Shown here piece after piece: positions 1,421-14,321 of a DNA stretch of 49,920 bases. The notes under the pieces were generated by a model. That model saw only the letters and a list, made by a program, of their open reading frames with translations. It was not told the DNA's origin and did not search any database. Source of the DNA: Patescibacteria group bacterium (lineage in GTDB: Bacteria; Patescibacteriota; Minisyncoccia; Phycocordibacterales; GWA1-40-21); the NCBI GenBank assembly GCA_018968925.1, contig JAGWZI010000001.1:1-49920 (forward strand), read 5' to 3'. Each line of letters opens with the position of its first letter. Positions within the stretch are counted from its first letter, which is position 1. The position numbers were made by a program, and so were the translations under genes.

Positions 1421-1559
1421 ATTCTACCACATTTTTTGCCTTGAAAAAAGAATGCATTCCCGATGAAAAAAACATATAATGGCGGGACAACCAGCGTGTT
1501 GCCAAAAATCCCGGAAGGGGTTTTTCATTGGTCTCATTTATCAGCATAATTTGGAAACA

Positions 1560-4226
<2,667 letters not shown>

Positions 4227-5138: not shown

Positions 5139-5669
5139 ATGTCAGAAGATTGGTATACAATAACAGGTGGAATTGATTCTAATGTTGCACAAAATTTAAT
5201 GACTTATGTTAATGGTCGAATTTATAATTCTGATATAAAAAAAATAAGAGTATTAATATCATCAACTGGTGGTGATGTGGATTCTGCAATTAGAATATAT
5301 TCGTATCTCAAAGCCTTACCCTTTGAAGTTGAAACTATTGCTTTAAGTCAAATCGATTCTGCTGCAAATATTATCTATGTTGCGGGGCAACAAAGAATAG
5401 CGATAAAAGGATGTCGTTTTTTCCTACATGAAGGAACATTTACAACTGGAGCACAAACAACAACATTACATAATCACGAGGAGGCATTGCTTATATTTAA
5501 AGAATTATTAAAAAAACATATAAATATTCTTGCGAAAGAAACTAGTAAAAAAGAAGAAGATATAAATAAATTATTACAAACAAGTACCATAATGGATGCG
5601 GAAAAAGCAAAAGAATTTGGTTTCGTTCATGAAATTTTAGAAAAACTTCCTTTTAAAAAACAAGTCTAG
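5139..5669 (+). CDS. ClpP/S14-fold serine protease-like protein (laterally acquired, AT-rich)
   Basis: 176 aa with by-eye ClpP alignment: ISSTGGDV (NSPGG loop), SQIDSAAN (GxAASMG, Ser kept), FFLHEG (IHQP, His kept), MDAEKAKEFGFVHEI (C-terminal ClpP block). G+C is about 30% against about 57% in the flanks. Confidence 0.75.
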   Translation: MSEDWYTITGGIDSNVAQNLMTYVNGRIYNSDIKKIRVLISSTGGDVDSAIRIYSYLKALPFEVETIALSQIDSAANIIYVAGQQRIAIKGCRFFLHEGTFTTGAQTTTLHNHEEALLIFKELLKKHINILAKETSKKEEDINKLLQTSTIMDAEKAKEFGFVHEILEKLPFKKQV

Positions 5670-7582
5670 AGTAATGAATCCAGCAACCGCTTGATCGGCA
5701 CGGTGGCGACGCCGACGACATCGTCAGCGCCGCCGTAGTAAACAAAGAGCGTCTCGTGACAGAGGACGGCGCCGCACGGAAAAACGACGTTCACGTGCTC
5801 GCCGGCCTTTTCATACGGCTCATCCGGTTCGAATATTGGTGCGTTCGCCCGGGCGACGATGCGCCGCGGGTCCTTCTTGTCGAGAAGCGCAATGCCGAGA
5901 CGATAGGTATGATGGTTCGACGAGACGCCGTGATAGAGCATGAGCCAGCCTTTCTCGGTCTTGATCGGCGGCGCGGTCAGACCGACCTTGTCCCCATCCC
6001 ATGCGCCCTGCCGCGGCATCATGATGGGCGTCGCGCGGGTCAGGAGAAGGTTGCGGAAATCAAGTTCATTGATGCCGTCGGCGCAGATATTCGAATTGAC
6101 GCGATGCAAAATGAGAAAATCCCTGCCGATCTTTTCCGGAAAGACGCAAGCATCCTTGTCATCGATGCCGGGCGGCGAGATCAGGAACGGTTTCGTCCAA
6201 TTCCACCGCTTCGCCAAAAAATCCTCGAGATAGATCGACGTGAGCGCCACGCGCGGCGGATTCGACCCGTCGTACGCCGTGTAGCACATGTAGATCACGT
6301 CGCCGATCCGGGTAAGACGGGGATCCTCGCAACCGGAATTGCCGGGATGCGTCTTCATCTCGAACGGCTCGCGCGGCAGGTATACGGGCGCATTGTCACG
6401 CTCAGCGATCGTGAAGCCGTCGTGCGTCGCCGCATAACCGAAGGTTGAGGTGAAATCATCCGACATCGCGCGATAGATGATGTGCGTCGTGCCGTCGATG
6501 CGGATAGCGGCGGGATTGAAGACGCCGTGCTTTTCCCACAGGACGCCCGGCCGCGGCCCGAGGATCGGATTGCCGAAGTAGCGCGGCATGTATGTCTTCA
6601 TTGCGTCCGGCCGCATGGCAAAGAGCAGGTTATCGAGCCTGACCGACGCCTTGCAGCAATACGTATCCGCGCCGCCGTAATAAATATCGAGCATATCGCC
6701 CGTGAGAAGCGCTCCGGACGGAAAAATGACGTCTTTGACCTGTCCCTCGCGCTCATAAACCTCTGTCGGCGAGAAGATCGGCCCGCGCGTTCTGCCGAGG
6801 ATCTTCATCGGATTCTCAAGATCGAGGAGAAGCGTCTCGGTGCCGAAGACGACCTGAAACGGATTGTTCTCTCGCCGATAGTTCTCGATATAGCTGTGCA
6901 CGAAAAGCCAGCCGTCTTTCGTTTTGAGCGGCGGAGCGCCGACCTCGATGTGGTCCGCCGGGAAACGGCGCGGATTGAAGACATGCGTGTCCACCTCGGC
7001 GTACCAGCGGCGCCAATACCCTTCATCCCAAATCTCCTCGATTCGGTCGAATTCGGCGAAGCAGATCTTCTCGTGCGGCGGCCGATCGGTATCGACGGAA
7101 AGGATCGCGACGATCTTGCCCTCGATCCGTTCGGGAAAAAGCACCATCGCTTTTGCGTTGAACGGCGTGACGATATGCTTCGCGGAAATATGGCGGAAAT
7201 CCTTCGTCACGGCGACGGCAACCTTGATACCGTCGGCATTGTACGGATAGTTTTCAAGCGCCGTGTAGAAAATGTAGTAATTTCCTTCGAAAAAACAAAC
7301 GCGCGGATCCTCGCAGCCGTAGCGTTCCCATGCGTATTCGGGAAAGACGAGTTGGCGCCGATCCTTGAAATCCGTGCCGGTCATGCTTTTCGCGTAGCCG
7401 ATGGACGAGATGCTCACGCTCGTGCCGAAATACGTTTCGGTCGCCGACATAGCGCGATAGACGGCATGGATCGTCCGCCCTGAACGGATCGGACACCAGT
7501 TGAACGTCGCTTTCCCTTCCCAGGGTTCTTCCGTGTTCGGCGAGATGATCGGATTGTGCGGAGAGCGTTTGACGGTAAACAT
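5666..7582 (-). CDS. two-module GH130-family glycoside phosphorylase/hydrolase-like protein
   Basis: 638 aa. The signature set occurs twice: HNPIISP...GCEDPRV...IYYGGADT in the N-half and GNPILGP...GCEDPRL...VYYGGADD in the C-half. This is typical of beta-mannoside phosphorylase-type 5-bladed propellers (DUF377/GH130). Confidence 0.85.
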   Translation of the reverse strand: MFTVKRSPHNPIISPNTEEPWEGKATFNWCPIRSGRTIHAVYRAMSATETYFGTSVSISSIGYAKSMTGTDFKDRRQLVFPEYAWERYGCEDPRVCFFEGNYYIFYTALENYPYNADGIKVAVAVTKDFRHISAKHIVTPFNAKAMVLFPERIEGKIVAILSVDTDRPPHEKICFAEFDRIEEIWDEGYWRRWYAEVDTHVFNPRRFPADHIEVGAPPLKTKDGWLFVHSYIENYRRENNPFQVVFGTETLLLDLENPMKILGRTRGPIFSPTEVYEREGQVKDVIFPSGALLTGDMLDIYYGGADTYCCKASVRLDNLLFAMRPDAMKTYMPRYFGNPILGPRPGVLWEKHGVFNPAAIRIDGTTHIIYRAMSDDFTSTFGYAATHDGFTIAERDNAPVYLPREPFEMKTHPGNSGCEDPRLTRIGDVIYMCYTAYDGSNPPRVALTSIYLEDFLAKRWNWTKPFLISPPGIDDKDACVFPEKIGRDFLILHRVNSNICADGINELDFRNLLLTRATPIMMPRQGAWDGDKVGLTAPPIKTEKGWLMLYHGVSSNHHTYRLGIALLDKKDPRRIVARANAPIFEPDEPYEKAGEHVNVVFPCGAVLCHETLFVYYGGADDVVGVATVPIKRLLDSLL

Positions 7583-9496
7583 TTAGGCGATGACGACTTT
7601 GCTGATAATGGGAACGATCGGCCGGTCGCGCTTGAGAGCGTCCAGAAATTCCTTCATCGGCGCGGTCGCCACGCAGACGTGCTTGTCTCCCCCGCCGTAA
7701 TAAATGAAGAGCGTGCCGTCCTTTTCGACCGCGCCGCAGGAATAGACGATGCCGGGCTTCCATTCGTTCTCGTACCATTCGGTCGGTTCGAGAATCGGCA
7801 CTGACGACCGCGCAATGACGCGCGTCGGATCGTCGAGATCGAGCAGGAGCGCGCCGACCTTGTATTTGCCCATCTCGGCGTCATGCGCCTGATACAGAAG
7901 CAGCCAGCCTTCGTCCGTTTTTACGGGCGACGGACCGGGCGCCTTCATGCGGATATGCCAGGCGATCGGCCGGTTGGGCATTTTCAGCGGATCGGGGCTG
8001 TGGAAGTTCGGATCGGTGATACCGGCAAGCTCCATGCTGTCGAAATATTCGACCATGACGCGGTCGGTCTCTTTGGAATGGAGGTTATGGAACATGGCAT
8101 ATCTGCCGTTTATTTTTTCCGGAAAGAGCACCCAGTTCTTGTGTCTGCCGACTGGCGACAGAAAACGCATTGGCGCCCAATTCCACCGCTTCGCCAGAAA
8201 ATCATCGACCGAGATCGACACCATCCCGATGCGGATATTGTCCCAGTTGTCGAACGCGTTGAACGTGAGATAGACACGGTCACCGATCTTCGTCACGCGC
8301 GGATCCTCGCAGCCGCCCCAGCTGCCGCCCGACGGATATCTGACCGGATCGAACTTTCGTTCCGTCACCGGCCGGAGGCCGTATGCCGAATATTCGAGCG
8401 CAAAGACCGGCTCGGGATGGATCTCGTCGATATGGATGCCGTCGGTCGTCCGCGCATAGCCGATCCGCGAAACGCCGTCCGGGCCCATGGCGCGGAAGAG
8501 GAGATGGATGACGCCGCCGATATTCACCGCGGCGGGATTGAGCGTCGCTTCCGATCCCCACCATCGGCCCTTTTGCGGCGCGATGATGGGATTTTTTGCG
8601 CTGCGTTTGACAAGACGAGACGCTTTTCGCACCGGCGATTTTGAAAACGGGGTAAAAAGCGAACACGACTGGATGCCGCCATGTTCCGAATACCAGTAAA
8701 TGAGCGCCGTATCATCGGCAAAAACGGCACCGACGGAGCGGAGGTCCGCATGATACGGCACCGTCTTTTCAAAAATCGGATGATCGGCCCGCCAGATGAC
8801 CTTTTGGGGATCGGACGGCGAAATGAGCGCCGCTCCGACCTGAAGCTTCACCTGATCGCCGTCTCGCACGGACGCATCGTAGAGAATGATTGTTCCCTTC
8901 TCGCAATGTTCCGCGCCAAGGAATTTCATATCACCATGATCAAAAAATCCCGGACGGGGTTTGAGCACGGGATCCTTTCTCTTCGTCCAATCAAGCGCGT
9001 TCTTTGCAGATGCCGTCCAGATCAACGACTCGCCAAAATACATAACCCGTTCGTTGCGGATCGAGCCGTCGGAAACGATACCGCCGCGTTCATGGATACC
9101 TGTCGCCGCACCGCGCACCCACCACTCGTGTCCCCGTTTATGTTCGGCGATCATAAGCTTGGCTGTCGGACCGGAACCGTATGTAAACACGATCACTTCC
9201 TTCGCGCCGACCCGAGCCGAGACAATATTATTGACATGGGCGAGCGAAAATTTCGGCGTCACCGCATGGGCGATGATCACGCGTTTCGCACTGTTCGCCG
9301 AAAAATGCACGAGGGATTGTTTTGCATTCGAGAGAAGGAAGATGGCGTGCGGATCGCTGCGCACACGGCAGAACATGGACAGTTTCTTTCCATCCTCCCA
9401 AAAACCGAGGGGTTCGAGACTATCAACGGTGTGTGTAACAGTTTTTTTCATGGGCATCGCAAAAAACAAAAAACAAGGTGCAAAGCGCCTTTTCAT
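7583..9496 (-). CDS. GH130-family protein, canonical C-terminal module plus divergent N-terminal module
   Basis: The C-half carries KNPIIAP...GCEDPRV...IYYGGGDK and is a paralog of the downstream gene. Its stop abuts the next gene's ATG (7583/7582). The start is uncertain: ATGs at 9496, 9457 or 9451. Confidence 0.8.
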   Translation of the reverse strand: MKRRFAPCFLFFAMPMKKTVTHTVDSLEPLGFWEDGKKLSMFCRVRSDPHAIFLLSNAKQSLVHFSANSAKRVIIAHAVTPKFSLAHVNNIVSARVGAKEVIVFTYGSGPTAKLMIAEHKRGHEWWVRGAATGIHERGGIVSDGSIRNERVMYFGESLIWTASAKNALDWTKRKDPVLKPRPGFFDHGDMKFLGAEHCEKGTIILYDASVRDGDQVKLQVGAALISPSDPQKVIWRADHPIFEKTVPYHADLRSVGAVFADDTALIYWYSEHGGIQSCSLFTPFSKSPVRKASRLVKRSAKNPIIAPQKGRWWGSEATLNPAAVNIGGVIHLLFRAMGPDGVSRIGYARTTDGIHIDEIHPEPVFALEYSAYGLRPVTERKFDPVRYPSGGSWGGCEDPRVTKIGDRVYLTFNAFDNWDNIRIGMVSISVDDFLAKRWNWAPMRFLSPVGRHKNWVLFPEKINGRYAMFHNLHSKETDRVMVEYFDSMELAGITDPNFHSPDPLKMPNRPIAWHIRMKAPGPSPVKTDEGWLLLYQAHDAEMGKYKVGALLLDLDDPTRVIARSSVPILEPTEWYENEWKPGIVYSCGAVEKDGTLFIYYGGGDKHVCVATAPMKEFLDALKRDRPIVPIISKVVIA

Positions 9497-9585
9497 TGCA
9501 ATTATACGATATTCTCTTTTCGGCGCAAATTATGGAAAGTGAACATTCGTCTTTATCACAAAAAACCGCTATAATCAGAAGCATT

Positions 9586-10347
9586 ATGAAAAAAGCGGTC
9601 GTATTCGATGTCGACGGAACCCTGTCGGAAAGCAAGGAACCGGTAGATCCTGTTACGGCAAACCTGCTATATCAGCTTCTCGCCAAGAAAAAGGTCGGCA
9701 TCATTTCCGGCGGCGGTCTTGCGCAGATGAAAAAACAAGTTCTCGACCATCTGCCTGCCGATGCCGACAGATTCGAAAATCTCTTTCTTTTTCCGGAAAA
9801 AGGCGGAGCGATGTATTGTTGGAACGGCGATGATTGGGCGCGAATCTACGAAAAACCGCTCGCTCCCGAAGACCGGAATGCGATTCGGACGGCGTTCAAA
9901 AAGGTCTCGACCGGGGTCGATTTTCTGCCGTCGGAACATTTCGGTCCCGTGTTCGAGGATCTCGGCGCGGAAGTCACCTTCTCTGCGCTCGGCCAGCACG
10001 CTCCGATCATGGAAAAAAAGCCCTGGGACCCGGATGCAAAAAAACGCGAACGCCTGAAAGCGCTTCTTGAACCGCTTCTGCCCGATTTTGAAATCGAGAT
10101 CGGCGGCACCACATCCATCAATATCACGAAGAAGGGCGTGGACAAGGCGTTCGCGCTCGAGGAATTCTGCCGACGCGAGCATCTTTCGATCGCGGATGTC
10201 CTCTATATTGGCGATGCCATTTATCCCGGCGGCAATGATTTTTCCGTCACCCGAACCGGCGTGGACACCGCAATCGTGAAAGATTATAATGAGACAAAAG
10301 CTATCATCCGGAAAATAATCGAAGGTGCATATGAAAATGAAATATGA
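9586..10347 (+). CDS. HAD-IIB phosphomannomutase-like protein (eukaryotic-type PMM family)
   Basis: From the ATG at 9586 it reads MKKAVVFDVDGTLSESKEPVDP (DxDGT nucleophile motif). It has a late GDAIYPGGNDFSV block like the PMM GDKTxxGGND. The upstream part of the 9478 ORF is AT-rich leader. Confidence 0.75.
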   Translation: MKKAVVFDVDGTLSESKEPVDPVTANLLYQLLAKKKVGIISGGGLAQMKKQVLDHLPADADRFENLFLFPEKGGAMYCWNGDDWARIYEKPLAPEDRNAIRTAFKKVSTGVDFLPSEHFGPVFEDLGAEVTFSALGQHAPIMEKKPWDPDAKKRERLKALLEPLLPDFEIEIGGTTSINITKKGVDKAFALEEFCRREHLSIADVLYIGDAIYPGGNDFSVTRTGVDTAIVKDYNETKAIIRKIIEGAYENEI

Positions 10348-10672
10348 CAAGCGCCCGTGGGGCGAGGAAGAAATCTTCACGATGAACGAGCGGACAACCG
10401 TGAAAATCCTGACCGTGAATCCAGGCGAGGCGTGTTCCTTGCAATATCACGAGCATCGGACGGAATTCTGGAAAATCATTGAAGGAAACCTGTCGGTCAT
10501 CATCGGCAAGGCAACGATAGCCGCAAAGCTTGGCGATGAATTTGAGGTTCAGCCGAAAACGAACCACCGTCTCATCGGCGGCACGAAACCTGCCAAAATT
10601 CTCGAGATTTCATTCGGCGATTTCGATGAGAGCGACATCGTCCGGCTCGAGGACAGGTACGGAAGGAAATGA
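10325..10672 (+). CDS. cupin-domain protein, type II mannose-6-phosphate isomerase-like
   Basis: 115 aa with RPWG, SLQYHEHRTEFWKII and NHRL, which match the cupin domain of PMI/ManC C-termini. It overlaps the PMM-like gene's end. The start could be 10325, 10331 or 10337. Confidence 0.7.
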   Translation: MHMKMKYDKRPWGEEEIFTMNERTTVKILTVNPGEACSLQYHEHRTEFWKIIEGNLSVIIGKATIAAKLGDEFEVQPKTNHRLIGGTKPAKILEISFGDFDESDIVRLEDRYGRK

Positions 10673-11893
10673 TCACTTCCCCGGCTTTTTCTTCTCCATC
10701 GGCACGTGCTTGAGAACGCGGAAAGCGCGCAGGCGCTCCGCCATCGATTCCATCTCATCGGTCGGAATGACGAGCACTTTCACCCGCGCATCCGCCGCGG
10801 CGATATCGGCCGCAACAGCGATCGCAGCGTCATTTGCCGGCCGATCAACGGTTACACCCATATATTTGAGTCCGTCGCAGATCTCGGCACGAACGGCCGC
10901 CGCCCGCTCGCCGATCGCGCCGGAGAAAACAAGTGCGTCAATGCCGCCCATTTCCGCCGCAAAGCCGCCGACGTATTTTTTCGCCGCCATGACAAATTTC
11001 TGGAACGCAAGCTTCGCCGCCGCATCGCCCGCCTTTGCCGCTTCGATGACATCGCGCATATCGCCGCTTTTCTTCGAAAGACCGAGCAAACCGCATTCGG
11101 TGTTCAGATACTCTTCCGTTTCCGCCGCATTCTTTTTCAATTTCCTGGCGAGATGGAACACCGCGACAGGATCGATGTTTCCAGCCCGCGTCGAGGTGAT
11201 GAGGCCTTCGAGCGGCGTATAGCCCATCGACGTATCGAAGCTTTTGCCGTTCTTGACCGCCGTAATGCTCGAGCCGCCGCCCAAATGACAGATGACGACA
11301 TTTGCGAAACGTGCGCCGCTTTTTGCAAGCTTCTCAACGATGGAACCGACGGAAATGCCGTGATAGCCGTAGTGATAGATCTCGAATTTGTCAGAAACGT
11401 CTTTCGGAATGGCGTAAAGCCGTGCAAAATCGGGCGCATTCTTATGGAACGCGCTGTCCGAGATGCCGACGATCGGCGTCTTCGGCAAAATGTTCCGCAG
11501 TTCGGCGATCTCGGCAAGGGTCCTCTTCACGTGGAGCGGCGCCTCGTCTTTCTCCTTCACGATGTGGTCCATGAAGAACGAGTCGATGATCCGGTCTTCC
11601 TGGAAGTACGTGCCGGGCGCCACGACGCGCACGCCGACTGACGATATCTCGTCGCGATTCGCGATGATCCCCTTCTTCTCGGCTTCGTCAAGAAAGCATT
11701 CGAGCGAATCATCAAAATCTTTCCCGGTGATTTTTTCCGTCCGCATATTCCCTTTCCGTCCAGAATCGTAGAAATCCACCGCCGGCTTGCCGCCATCGGT
11801 CTCGAAGTAGGCATAGAACAGCTCGGCAAGCTCCGAATAGATCGAATATTTCGCCGAAACCGAACCCGTATTGACGATGAGGTATTTTTTCAT
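10673..11893 (-). CDS. ackA: acetate kinase
   Basis: 406 aa with acetate/propionate kinase blocks: IVNTGSVSAKYS, ISDSAFH, YGYHGIS, CHLGGGSS, DTSMGYTPLEGLITSTRAGNIDP, FSGAIGE. Confidence 0.9.
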   Translation of the reverse strand: MKKYLIVNTGSVSAKYSIYSELAELFYAYFETDGGKPAVDFYDSGRKGNMRTEKITGKDFDDSLECFLDEAEKKGIIANRDEISSVGVRVVAPGTYFQEDRIIDSFFMDHIVKEKDEAPLHVKRTLAEIAELRNILPKTPIVGISDSAFHKNAPDFARLYAIPKDVSDKFEIYHYGYHGISVGSIVEKLAKSGARFANVVICHLGGGSSITAVKNGKSFDTSMGYTPLEGLITSTRAGNIDPVAVFHLARKLKKNAAETEEYLNTECGLLGLSKKSGDMRDVIEAAKAGDAAAKLAFQKFVMAAKKYVGGFAAEMGGIDALVFSGAIGERAAAVRAEICDGLKYMGVTVDRPANDAAIAVAADIAAADARVKVLVIPTDEMESMAERLRAFRVLKHVPMEKKKPGK

Positions 11894-11894
11894 G

Positions 11895-14321
11895 TTATTT
11901 TTTTCCTTTCCACTGCCATTTCAGGATTTCCTCCGGATCTTCGCCGTATTGCATGATGTAATCCTTGTGGTCGCGGATTTTCTGCTCGTACTTTTTCACG
12001 ATCGCATCCGCCTTGCCGCGCTCGATCACGCCGCGGTCGGCAAGCATCCGGACGGCTTCGGCGGCAAGATTCCACCGGTCGGTCTTGTTCCTGATATGGA
12101 GGTCGAGCGACGTCGTCGTCGAACCTGATTCAAGGTAGCCGTGCACGGAAAAGCGGTCGAGCGAATTGACGTAATAGAACAGGACCTGCTCCATGGTTTC
12201 CGGATAGCCGTGAAAATTGAAGATCGCCGGCTTGTCTTTTGTGAAATAATGCTCGAATTCCGCTTCGGTGATCTTGTTATGACCGTTTGCGGAATTCGGC
12301 GAGAGTTCGAGGATGTTCACGAACCTTACCTTCGCTTCCGGTGCCTCCTCTTTCAGGATCTCCACGGCGGCAAGCGCTTCCTTCACGAGATACTGCCCGC
12401 ATCCGGCAATAACAATGTCCGGGTTCTCATCGGAGGCGAAATCCCAGATCGACAGGCCTTTCGCGATCTCTTCCTTCGCCTCGCCGAACGTGCGCCAGAT
12501 CGGCTCGACGGTCTTCTCGGCAACGATAACATTCATCTCGTTCTTCGCCGAAAGGCATTTCTCCGCGACGAGCACCGCCTCGTGCATGTCCGCCGGGAAA
12601 TAGACGTTGATGAAATCATGCTTTTTCAAAAGAATGTCTGCGATGAAGCCGGGATTCTGATGCGAGAAGCCGTTGTGCTCCTGCCGCCAGCCGGACGAGG
12701 TGATGATGTACGTGAGGCCCGGAACATCGCCGCGCCAATCGGTCTTGCGCGCGATCTTCAAAAACTTGCTGTATTGCTCCGCCATGCTTGCCGCAACCAT
12801 GAGAAATGACTCATATGACGGAAAGACGGCAAAGCGGCCGGTCAGGGCGTAGCCTTGTGCCAAACCGTGCAGGGCGTTTTCGGACAGCATCTCGATGACG
12901 CGGCCGTCGCGGGCAAGATCGATGTCCCAATCCTGGATTTTCCCGGCGAATGCCCGCGGCGTCGCGGCAAAAATGTACTGCAAGCGGTTTGAATAGGTTT
13001 CGTCGGGCGAAAAGAGGCGGAAGTTGCGCCGATCATGGTTCGCATCGACGACCGCGCGGAAATATTGCCCCATCTGTATCATCGAGCTCGCCGTCGAGGC
13101 GCCGGCCGCTGAAATTTTCGCATCAAACGCCGAGATGTCCGGTAACAAGAGATCGCGCGACCGGTCGCCTTTCGGGATCCCGAATGCGGTCTTGTTTTCA
13201 CCCATGCGCAAACCCTCGCGCGGCACGTTCGCTTCGATATCTTTGATAAAACCCGTTTTTGCATTGAACAACTCCTCGAACTTGTACGACCGCATCCATG
13301 CGTCGAGCGCGGCAAGTTCCGCCGGATCGGTCTTCATTTCGCGGCCGACGACCTGGTGCGCAAAACAGTTGCCTTCGACCTTCGCGTCGAATTTTTTGCC
13401 GCGGCCTTCGATGTCCCAACTGTAAAGATGTTTGATACCGGTCCAGCCCTTCGGCGTCTTCAGAATGATCATGGGAAAACGGAAATAGTCCTCGAGCTTG
13501 CGGTTCGGATTCGCCCGCGCCTCTTTCTGGATCTTGCGGATGGACGCATAGGCCCGATCGAGCGCCTTGACCATGTCCGCGTAGACTTTGTCGTCGTATC
13601 CTTCGACGATCATCGGCTCGTAGCCGTAACCGCGGAAGAGCGAAAGCAAGTCTTCGTTCTTCATCCTGCCGAAAACGGTCGGTCCGGAGATTTTGTAGCC
13701 GTTCAAGTGAAGTATCGGCAAGACCGCGCCGTTTGTCGCCGGATCGATGAATTTTGACAGGTGCCACGCCGTGGCCGCGGTCGCCGTTTCCGCTTCGCCG
13801 TCGCCGACAAGGCATGTGACGATGAGGTCAGGATTGTCGAGTATCGCGCCATATGACGTGGCAAGCGAATAGCCGAGCTCGCCGCCTTCGAGGATCGCCC
13901 CCGGCGTCGCCGGCGAGACGTGGCTCGGGAACTGGTACGGCCAGGAGAAATTATGCATGATGTAGCCGATGCCTTTTTCGTCCTTCTTCGCCTCGGGATA
14001 ATATTTGGCGAGCGTTCCTTCGAGAAAGACGTTCGCCTGCACCGCCGGGAAACCGTGTCCCGGACCGAGGACAAAAAGCATGTTCGCGCCGGTCTTCACG
14101 ATGAGGTTATTCAAACAGGCATAGGTGAAGTTGATGCCCGGGCACGTGCCCCAGTGGCCGAGGAGTCGCGTTTTGATGTGGTCAAAAGTGAGCTTTTCCT
14201 TCAATAAAAAATTGCCTTCGAGATAGATCTGCCCCGCCGACAAATAATTCGCCGCGCGGACGTATTTCTTGATTCGCTCGATTTCAGCGTTCATATGGGA
14301 GAAGTATACCATCCGCTTCAT
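11895..14321 (-). CDS. xfp: xylulose-5-phosphate/fructose-6-phosphate phosphoketolase
   Basis: 808 aa with the classic N-terminus ANYLSAGQIYLEGNFLLKEKLTFDHIKTRLLGHWGTCPG and TPP-binding blocks (GDGEAETG-like LVGDGEAETA). Its stop is 1 nt upstream of the ackA ATG. The true start may be the ATG for M10. Confidence 0.95.
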   Translation of the reverse strand: MKRMVYFSHMNAEIERIKKYVRAANYLSAGQIYLEGNFLLKEKLTFDHIKTRLLGHWGTCPGINFTYACLNNLIVKTGANMLFVLGPGHGFPAVQANVFLEGTLAKYYPEAKKDEKGIGYIMHNFSWPYQFPSHVSPATPGAILEGGELGYSLATSYGAILDNPDLIVTCLVGDGEAETATAATAWHLSKFIDPATNGAVLPILHLNGYKISGPTVFGRMKNEDLLSLFRGYGYEPMIVEGYDDKVYADMVKALDRAYASIRKIQKEARANPNRKLEDYFRFPMIILKTPKGWTGIKHLYSWDIEGRGKKFDAKVEGNCFAHQVVGREMKTDPAELAALDAWMRSYKFEELFNAKTGFIKDIEANVPREGLRMGENKTAFGIPKGDRSRDLLLPDISAFDAKISAAGASTASSMIQMGQYFRAVVDANHDRRNFRLFSPDETYSNRLQYIFAATPRAFAGKIQDWDIDLARDGRVIEMLSENALHGLAQGYALTGRFAVFPSYESFLMVAASMAEQYSKFLKIARKTDWRGDVPGLTYIITSSGWRQEHNGFSHQNPGFIADILLKKHDFINVYFPADMHEAVLVAEKCLSAKNEMNVIVAEKTVEPIWRTFGEAKEEIAKGLSIWDFASDENPDIVIAGCGQYLVKEALAAVEILKEEAPEAKVRFVNILELSPNSANGHNKITEAEFEHYFTKDKPAIFNFHGYPETMEQVLFYYVNSLDRFSVHGYLESGSTTTSLDLHIRNKTDRWNLAAEAVRMLADRGVIERGKADAIVKKYEQKIRDHKDYIMQYGEDPEEILKWQWKGKK

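Follow-up and report, generated by a model that had tools for sequence, protein, structure and literature searches.

Gene content and layout of the locus

A Patescibacteria group bacterium of the order Phycocordibacterales (GenBank assembly GCA_018968925.1; a genome of 579 kb that is 93% complete, labelled G000 below) contains a block of six adjacent genes, encoding two proteins of glycoside hydrolase family 130 (GH130A and GH130B), a HAD-IIB mutase resembling phosphomannomutases (PMM), a cupin of the phosphomannose isomerase (PMI) type, acetate kinase (AckA), and phosphoketolase (Xfp). The block is encountered in the window analysed here, a stretch of 49,920 nucleotides of contig JAGWZI010000001.1 (contig C28 of the genome). 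The original prediction for this locus proposed a closed chain, in which two mannoside phosphorylases release mannose-1-phosphate (Man-1-P), the mutase and the isomerase convert it via mannose-6-phosphate (Man-6-P) to fructose-6-phosphate (Fru-6-P), and Xfp and AckA form ATP from the latter, without a kinase step at sugar entry. This paper describes the block by its residue patterns, its inheritance, and the metabolic gene content of the genome and its relatives. The data revealed that the block consists of two modules that are adjacent yet separately inherited, i.e., a four-gene GH130 cassette (module 1, 5666-10672) and the xfp-ackA pair (module 2, 10673-14321), and that a kinase-free route from mannosides to ATP is plausible and partly supported, but is not a dedicated or closed pathway.

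Genes were called from an open reading frame (ORF) listing in combination with profile scans against curated cut-offs, and all six predicted ORFs were recovered with family matches above these cut-offs (Table 1). Xfp was matched over its three domains, i.e., XFP_N (436 bits), XFP (216 bits), and XFP_C (195 bits).

Table 1. Features of the six-gene block (positions in the window) and metabolic genes elsewhere in the genome (contig and positions).
Feature	Position	Strand	Description
GH130A	5666-7582	-	638 aa; PF04041 281 bits over two stretches
GH130A C-terminal module (GH130A-C)	5666..6607	-	residues 326-638 and stop codon; putative canonical beta-1,2-mannoside phosphorylase module
GH130A N-terminal module (GH130A-N)	6608..7582	-	residues 1-325; proton donor and sugar subsites retained, phosphate site substituted
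GH130B	7583-9496	-	PF04041 150 bits; probable start M14 (9457)
GH130B C-terminal module (GH130B-C)	7583..8611	-	residues 296-637 and stop codon; anion site altered
GH130B N-terminal module (GH130B-N)	8612..9457	-	degenerate propeller, probably non-catalytic; start taken as M14
Divergent spacer	9458..9585		back-to-back TATAAT boxes at 9506-9501 (-) and 9570-9575 (+), read from sequence
HAD-IIB PMM-like mutase	ORF 9478-10347; real start ATG 9586	+	PF03332, TIGR01484
PMI cupin, stand-alone type-II	10325-10672	+	PF01050 69.3 bits (cut-off 23.6)
ackA, acetate kinase	10673-11893	-	PF00871 304 bits; TIGR00016 304 bits (cut-off 293)
xfp, phosphoketolase	11895-14321	-	NF003616 838 bits (cut-off 777); probable start M10 (14294)
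RpiB-Rpe-(111-aa unknown ORF)-class II FBA cluster	G000:C24:2031-4610		locus L105
TPI	G000:C3:32123-32881		
GlmS, full-length	G000:C30:17505-19316		777 bits (cut-off 418)

The genes abut in two pairs, GH130B/GH130A and xfp/ackA, and the PMI and ackA genes converge, with stop codons that touch at 10672/10673. The ppdK gene ends at 4226, which is 1.44 kb from GH130A, and lexA and a ClpP-like gene are located in between. This geometry agrees with the original description, except for the divergent intergenic region, which had been put at 90 bp. The translation start of GH130B is probably M14, since most orthologous ORFs begin aligned at this position and the minus-strand TATAAT box lies only 4 nt from the ATG at 9496, and this start corrects the divergent spacer to approximately 128 bp. 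At the 5' end of xfp, a promoter-like site (14332-14303, minus strand; ATGACA-18-TGnTATACT) overlaps the first ATG, and the second ATG (M10), 8 nt past the -10 box, is the probable start of this gene, in keeping with leaderless mRNAs noted for other genes of this genome. A strict two-hexamer scan detected no site in the divergent spacer, and the number of sites obtained in the promoter and terminator scan of the region was not above shuffled expectation.

Active-site signatures of the cassette enzymes

Each of the GH130 genes encodes a tandem of two propeller modules, resulting in four modules in total. In the species-genome collection, the double-module GH130 protein was encountered in at least 160 stretches, and orthologue sets of 77 GH130A and 68 GH130B proteins were compiled from 80 loci. 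Residues were assessed on basis of published criteria (Li 2020, PMC7660257; Cuskin 2015, PMC4599007; PMC12814180) in Uhgb_MP numbering. GH130 phosphorylases are characterised by the proton donor D104 and the phosphate-binding pair R168/H231, and have no catalytic base, while enzymes specific to beta-1,2-mannosides are marked by E at the position of Y103 and K at that of R150 (PMC7660257). In the genome search, PF04041 matched three of the modules at 169.6, 114.8, and 131 bits, and GH130B-N at 17.8 bits, which is below the cut-off of 26; the counterpart of GH130B-N in six congeners exceeds this cut-off. The E/K pair is invariant in the other three modules in all aligned orthologues (E91/K144 in GH130A-N, E419/K476 in GH130A-C, and E397/K453 in GH130B-C).

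The complete phosphorylase signature is present in GH130A-C alone, where D420, R494, and H551 are conserved in 76-77 of the 77 orthologues. Besides these residues, R371, E419, K476, H493 (preceding R494), K/R532, Y550 (preceding H551), and D620 are invariant or nearly so. Among solved sequences, the module comes closest to 9FJ8 (E 5.5e-51) and 7FIP, and the predicted fold superimposes on Teth514_1788 with a TM score of 0.90 and a root-mean-square deviation (rmsd) of 1.8-1.9 in Foldseek. This module is therefore inferred to be a beta-1,2-mannoside phosphorylase. The remaining three modules do not carry the canonical Arg/His pair, and the originally predicted pair of phosphorylases is reduced to a single module with the expected phosphate-binding residues.

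GH130A-N is related to 9FJ8 as well (E 2.2e-37) and has R43, E91, D92, K144, and D306 as invariant residues among the 77 orthologues. Its R168-equivalent is an invariant aspartate (D166) that forms part of a T-D-x-P motif, S230 takes the place of H231 in 63 of the 77, and position 212 has no basic residue. By these substitutions the module looks like one that has lost its phosphate site and become hydrolase-like. A signal peptide was not visible by eye in GH130A-N. In GH130B-C (9FJ8, E 2.1e-40; 7FIP and 9GPH at VIA-align Z 35), residues R335, E397, D398, K453, H470, and D604 are invariant among the 68 orthologues. The R168-equivalent is N471 in the window and S (29), R (18), or N (16) in most orthologues, with S, N, G, or A in 50 of the 68, and the H231-equivalent, Q536 in the window, is H in 53. 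In the 66 orthologues in which position 518 is occupied, arginine is found at 471 or at 518 and never at both: R471 goes with a hydrophobic residue at 518, and its absence with R518, for which the window copy has K518. This alternation suggests that the anion-binding residue of GH130B-C has been relocated and the site not lost. GH130B-N is poorly conserved in the orthologue alignment, contains no EDPR or other catalytic motif, and is probably degenerate and non-catalytic.

The full-length structure prediction of GH130A has a mean predicted local distance difference test score (pLDDT) of 94 and a predicted template modelling score (pTM) of 0.89, which suggests that its two propellers pack in one fixed arrangement. 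The model of GH130B has an overall pLDDT of 85, its N-module being confidently all-beta (about 85-94), and all its VIA-align matches fall on the C-module (residues 277-610). The best fold matches of the GH130 models are Teth514_1788 and Teth514_1789 (TM 0.88-0.90, Z 35).

The proteins predicted to act on Man-1-P and Man-6-P belong to the expected families. The mutase contains the DVDGT motif (within FDVDGTL) and exceeds the cut-offs of PF03332 (28.4 versus 22.4 bits) and TIGR01484 (62.5 versus 41.8 bits). The cupin matches positions 360-467 of the 467 positions in TIGR01479, corresponding to the C-terminal 108 residues of this model of bifunctional GMP/PMI enzymes, and is inferred to be a Man-6-P to Fru-6-P isomerase; the solved structures nearest to it come from small archaeal cupins whose PMI function is by annotation only. 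Family membership, motif, and linkage to GH130 are in line with the predicted PMM and PMI roles, but among solved structures the mutase is closest to 4BND, the Lactococcus lactis alpha-phosphoglucomutase (E 5.8e-42), while eukaryotic PMMs match at only approximately 1e-12. Since 4BND is far closer than the solved PMMs, the sequence does not settle mannose versus glucose specificity, and the PMM role is argued only by the genomic linkage of the mutase to GH130.

These relationships would also fit a chain that is misassigned altogether, with the mutase acting as an alpha-phosphoglucomutase, like PgmH of L. lactis, and the GH130 proteins acting on substrates other than beta-1,2-mannosides, as could be read from the 4BND match and from the annotation-based function of the closest small cupins in the Protein Data Bank. 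Such different chemistry is considered very unlikely, as three modules carry the beta-1,2 E/K pair without exception, both sequence and fold place beta-1,2-mannoside phosphorylases nearest among characterised enzymes, the cupin specifically matches the PMI domain of GMP/PMI enzymes, and no PGI was found that could use glucose-6-phosphate.

Inheritance of the two modules and their metabolic context

The distribution of both modules was determined in 41 genomes, comprising G000, 24 congeners, and 16 genomes from other families of the same order. GH130 was encountered in 15 of these, 11 within the genus (G000 counted) and 4 outside. Every one of the 15 GH130-positive genomes encodes the mutase, which none of the 14 GH130-negative congeners has, and the mutase gene adjoins GH130 wherever positions were compared (the four non-genus genomes and the compared genus loci). 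Strong PMI matches in the genus are confined to GH130-positive genomes (10 of 11). Among the 80 GH130 loci, 68 have a GH130B-like gene immediately upstream of GH130A in the same orientation, and PMI and mutase genes are found within 10 kb of GH130A in 28-31 and 22 loci, respectively; distant lineages have co-directional PMM-PMI-GH130B-GH130A operons. This co-occurrence and adjacency indicate that module 1 is a real functional unit, and the predicted functional linkage of GH130, mutase, and PMI is thereby upheld. The four-gene cassette is gained and lost as a unit: two cassette-free congeners retain the ppdK-ackA-xfp-typA synteny, and in one of them (G016) lexA is located approximately 90 bp from ackA. 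On basis of the conserved flanks, the cassette represents an insertion or deletion between lexA and ackA.

Other genes recur around GH130 as well. Eight of the 80 loci have a cytidylyltransferase-like gene (PF01467, 162 aa; L035:7516-8004) upstream of, and co-directional with, the GH130 genes, and in locus L035 it sits between the PMI and PMM genes; strong orthologues were found only in four GH130-positive genomes of the order sample, and none in G000. Moreover, genes for HlyD, a MacB-type permease, an ABC ATPase, and a 500-aa protein of the major facilitator superfamily (MFS) are repeatedly found close to GH130A (up to 22 loci, mostly on its downstream side), among others in L036, L053, L061, L065, L068, L071, and L085.

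Module 2 follows a different distribution. Xfp is present in 23 of the 24 congeners, with or without the cassette, and outside the genus in 4 of 16 genomes at E <= 0.001 (3 above the cut-off, G040 being marginal). AckA is likewise present in 23 of the 24 congeners, and among the 16 other genomes only in the three with strong Xfp matches. An xfp or ackA gene is found near GH130 in just 8-9 of the 80 loci, all from close relatives. The adjacency of the cassette to xfp-ackA is peculiar to the genus, and the proposed conserved link between the GH130 block and xfp-ackA did not hold, in that Xfp belongs to the genus core regardless of the cassette and is absent from the four cassette carriers outside the genus; the neighbourhood that is conserved in related genomes is the GH130-mutase-PMI unit. 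In a comparison of the window with loci L006-L018 and L086-L089, AckA is 42-44% identical for many congeners, a few reaching 56-66%, while its neighbours are far more alike (Xfp 63-81%, PPDK and TypA 82-90%), which suggests two AckA lineages or fast evolution.

The metabolic context was established by Pfam searches of the genome and by phmmer searches with Escherichia coli K-12 enzymes against all six-frame ORFs. Glucokinase (glk), ROK kinases, PFK, PGI, RpiA, GAPDH, PGK, PGAM, enolase, pyruvate kinase, and Pta were not found in the genome, which favours the original prediction in its check of whether hexokinase or the rest of glycolysis is missing. RpiB, Rpe, FBA, and TPI are, together with Xfp and AckA, the sole central-carbon enzymes found; PPDK and GlmS are also present. 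PPDK (window 1479-4226) is encoded despite negative searches for enolase, PGAM, pyruvate kinase, and MurA in this genome, and its substrates phosphoenolpyruvate and pyruvate are without evident source or sink. GAPDH is encoded by none of the 24 congeners and transketolase by one, versus 16 of 16 genomes for both enzymes in the other families of the order, while TIM and GAPDH are near-universal in the candidate phyla radiation (CPR) according to a survey (PMC7304191). In this genus, phosphoketolase chemistry seems to have taken the place of lower glycolysis and of the non-oxidative pentose pathway, and the Xfp-AckA pair looks like the main ATP-yielding sugar-phosphate route of this genome. Enolase was encountered in 6 of the 24 congeners, all six without the GH130 cassette.

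The genus as a whole may even depend solely on phosphoketolase chemistry, with both GAPDH-based glycolysis and the transketolase/transaldolase pathway abandoned. In a recursive scheme, Xfp would act on Fru-6-P, xylulose-5-phosphate, and sedoheptulose-7-phosphate, and FBA would condense erythrose-4-phosphate with dihydroxyacetone phosphate, yielding a transketolase-free, non-oxidative glycolysis with at most 3 acetyl phosphates per hexose, to which the cassette would be an optional feed. The scheme would be confined to genomes with RpiB, Rpe, TPI, and class II FBA, of which G000 is one. It stays speculative, since no fructose-bisphosphatase (FBPase) was found and FBA is missing from 9 of the 24 congeners, and we regard it as quite unlikely. 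A bisphosphatase closing such FBA-based recycling of erythrose-4-phosphate was rejected as a candidate, since searches for FBPase classes I, IV, and V (Pfam) and II (phmmer, glpX and yggF) detected no enzyme in the genome that links FBA products to Xfp substrates.

Xfp and GlmS are the only users of Fru-6-P found in this genome. The cassette could, therefore, be catabolic and deliver Fru-6-P mainly to GlmS as an amino-sugar precursor, its adjacency to xfp-ackA reflecting a retained insertion site. The full-length GlmS, the lack of any other Fru-6-P source found in the genome, and the single fixed site at which the cassette appears as an indel are consistent with this role, as is the finding that GlmS is restricted in the genus to G000, G014, and G020, which are all cassette-positive, and that one of the two GlmS-positive genomes outside the genus carries the cassette. 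However, GlmS is missing from 8 of the 11 cassette-bearing genomes of the genus (G000 counted), the three that have it are close kin, which weakens the association, and the downstream amino-sugar route is not evident: GlmU and MurA had no match to E. coli queries in the genome, and neither had the PHM-type mutases, a family that includes GlmM, with the E. coli cpsG query, GlmM itself not being queried. Precursor supply as the principal function is highly improbable.

Candidate functions of the cassette and known systems

The favoured reading, which we judge to have a slightly better than even chance of being correct, is that cytoplasmic beta-1,2-mannosides are converted to Fru-6-P via Man-1-P and Man-6-P, and that the Fru-6-P enters Xfp or GlmS, making the cassette an accessory feed to a pre-existing phosphoketolase pathway. 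The gene identities, residue patterns, co-occurrence, and gene-content context are observed, while substrates, the direction of flux, and the use of Fru-6-P by Xfp would follow from them. GH130A-C, judged by its residue signature, would release alpha-Man-1-P from beta-1,2-mannosides with phosphate, the HAD-type mutase would convert this to Man-6-P, and the type-II PMI cupin would form Fru-6-P, for which only Xfp or GlmS would be available as destination in this genome. Xfp would cleave Fru-6-P into acetyl phosphate and erythrose-4-phosphate, followed by the formation of one ATP by AckA. In this route, GH130B-C may bind the anion via the relocated basic residue and handle another chain length, GH130A-N would be hydrolase-like, with catalytic acid and sugar subsites kept and Asp in place of the phosphate-binding Arg, and GH130B-N would have a structural role. 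The xfp-ackA pair would serve the genus as its core ATP-yielding pair, operating mainly on pentose phosphate, for which RpiB and Rpe are present.

Several observations weigh against this reading. The GH130B copy in the window is the most deviant of the 68 orthologues, being alone in combining the N471/Q536 pair with K518, and the mutase has its affinity to alpha-phosphoglucomutase. In the four genomes that carry the cassette outside the genus, AckA is lacking and Xfp gives no match above the cut-off. Transaldolase (PF00923) and transketolase (PF00456; no match to the E. coli tktA query) are absent from the genome, and with all tested FBPase classes not found either, erythrose-4-phosphate has no known outlet; FBA, the one enzyme that might consume it, is not encoded by 6 of the 11 genus members with the cassette (G000 counted). 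Moreover, there is no carbohydrate importer in or near the cassette, and beta-1,2-mannosides are rare in nature. The chain is possible as an accessory feed, and no sugar kinase was found, but it is not closed, given the erythrose-4-phosphate and the lack of an importer in the cassette, and its modules are inherited separately. An MFS protein (C18:6500-8074), the only match to the E. coli GalP query, was considered as sugar importer and rejected. It is unlinked to the cassette in G000, and homologues with 56-69% identity are located 3-7 kb from GH130A in seven loci; the recurring HlyD and MacB-type ABC genes in the neighbourhood in other lineages led us to read it as an efflux-type protein and not as evidence for uptake.

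The same genes could serve a mannogen-like reserve, in which the cassette builds and degrades intracellular beta-1,2-mannan from Fru-6-P, the Arg-less modules synthesising the polymer and GH130A-C mobilising it, in parallel to the mannogen of Leishmania. All modules appear cytoplasmic, the cassette has no importer, and catalytic acid and sugar subsites are retained in the three modules without the Arg, which would suit such a function. For the GT108 family, the phosphate-binding Arg is described as the switch between transferase and phosphorylase (PMC12814180), which counts in favour of this possibility, as do the weak GDP-mannose transferase activity shown by beta-1,2-acting GH130 enzymes, the recovery of Leishmania mannosyltransferase/phosphorylase (MTP) structures as fold relatives, and the cytidylyltransferase-like gene upstream of GH130 in 8 loci (between PMI and PMM in L035), with strong orthologues only in GH130-positive genomes. 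On the other hand, no nucleotidyltransferase for the formation of NDP-mannose was found here, PF00483 being absent and the cytidylyltransferase-like gene having no homologue in G000. Reverse phosphorolysis alone is unfavourable for synthesis at cellular phosphate levels. Furthermore, searches for an enzyme that could supply Fru-6-P (FBPase, PGI, TKT, or TAL) were negative, the only related enzymes found being Xfp and GlmS, the latter an irreversible consumer. We consider storage of this kind unlikely. The reading of the cassette as a GDP-mannose biosynthesis locus was rejected, since no ManC-type gene was found: the genome gave no hit to PF00483, and only the cupin was matched by E. coli CpsB, in agreement with the catabolic context of the original prediction.

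Considering the favoured route again, its closest known counterparts are Teth514_1788 and Teth514_1789 of Thermoanaerobacter sp., an adjacent cytoplasmic GH130 pair with the same E/K beta-1,2 signature, which match best in both sequence and fold (about 34-36% identity, TM 0.88-0.90, Z 35) and which, like the present pair if it is phosphorolytic, produce Man-1-P without expense of ATP (PMC4264767). However, the Teth514 enzymes are single-module proteins that are both canonical phosphorylases, while here double modules occur of which one of the four is canonical. In addition, the Teth514 cluster encodes an ABC importer, GH5, ManC, and GT4, and was proposed to feed GDP-mannose, whereas the present locus has the HAD mutase and PMI cupin and neither importer nor ManC. 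The GH130 route of gut anaerobes (Bacteroides, Ruminococcus) similarly proceeds by phosphorolysis, mutase, and isomerase to Fru-6-P without a kinase (PMC4264767), but it involves beta-1,4 linkages, a PMM of the alpha-D-phosphohexomutase type, a type-I PMI, and full glycolysis, of which PFK, GAPDH, and the rest are missing in this genome. The bifid shunt of Bifidobacterium shares the formation of ATP from sugar phosphates by Xfp and AckA through acetyl phosphate. It recycles erythrose-4-phosphate by transaldolase and transketolase, neither of which was found here (transketolase being missing in 23 of the 24 congeners), and operation of the bifid shunt was rejected for that reason.

For individual modules, counterparts are found among the beta-1,2-mannosidases BT3780 and BACOVA_03624, which resemble GH130A-N in having a carboxylate in place of the basic phosphate ligands, together with a retained E/K pair and proton donor (PMC4599007). 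These enzymes are secreted and single-module, and have Glu residues, whereas GH130A-N has D166, which aligns with the phosphate-binding Arg and is no more than a candidate equivalent of their catalytic base. The MTP of Leishmania (GT108, with a GH130-like fold) likewise represent a beta-1,2-mannan family in which Arg-less transferases and Arg-bearing phosphorylases are mixed within one fold, but they share 11-16% identity and depend on GDP-mannose, for which no synthesis route was found here.

GH130-GH130 fusions appear in the literature only as a CAZy count (PMC7660257), and two intracellular GH130 enzymes were reported for one Microgenomates genome (PMC7143001). Phosphoketolase is not mentioned in the CPR literature that was searched, including the metabolic survey PMC7304191. 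Kinase-free sugar entry by phosphorolysis and phosphoketolase fermentation are already known. By contrast, a conserved Patescibacteria cassette of four GH130 propellers with one textbook phosphorylase, its Asp-for-Arg module and its module with an apparently moved basic residue, and a host genus that is without GAPDH and yet keeps Xfp and AckA, were undescribed in the literature searched. The GH130 enzymes are candidates for oligomannoside synthesis. If the route works, it would yield one ATP per mannosyl unit with zero ATP invested, in minimal cells, and it would point to beta-1,2-mannosides as a currency between episymbionts and their hosts, or as a storage polymer.

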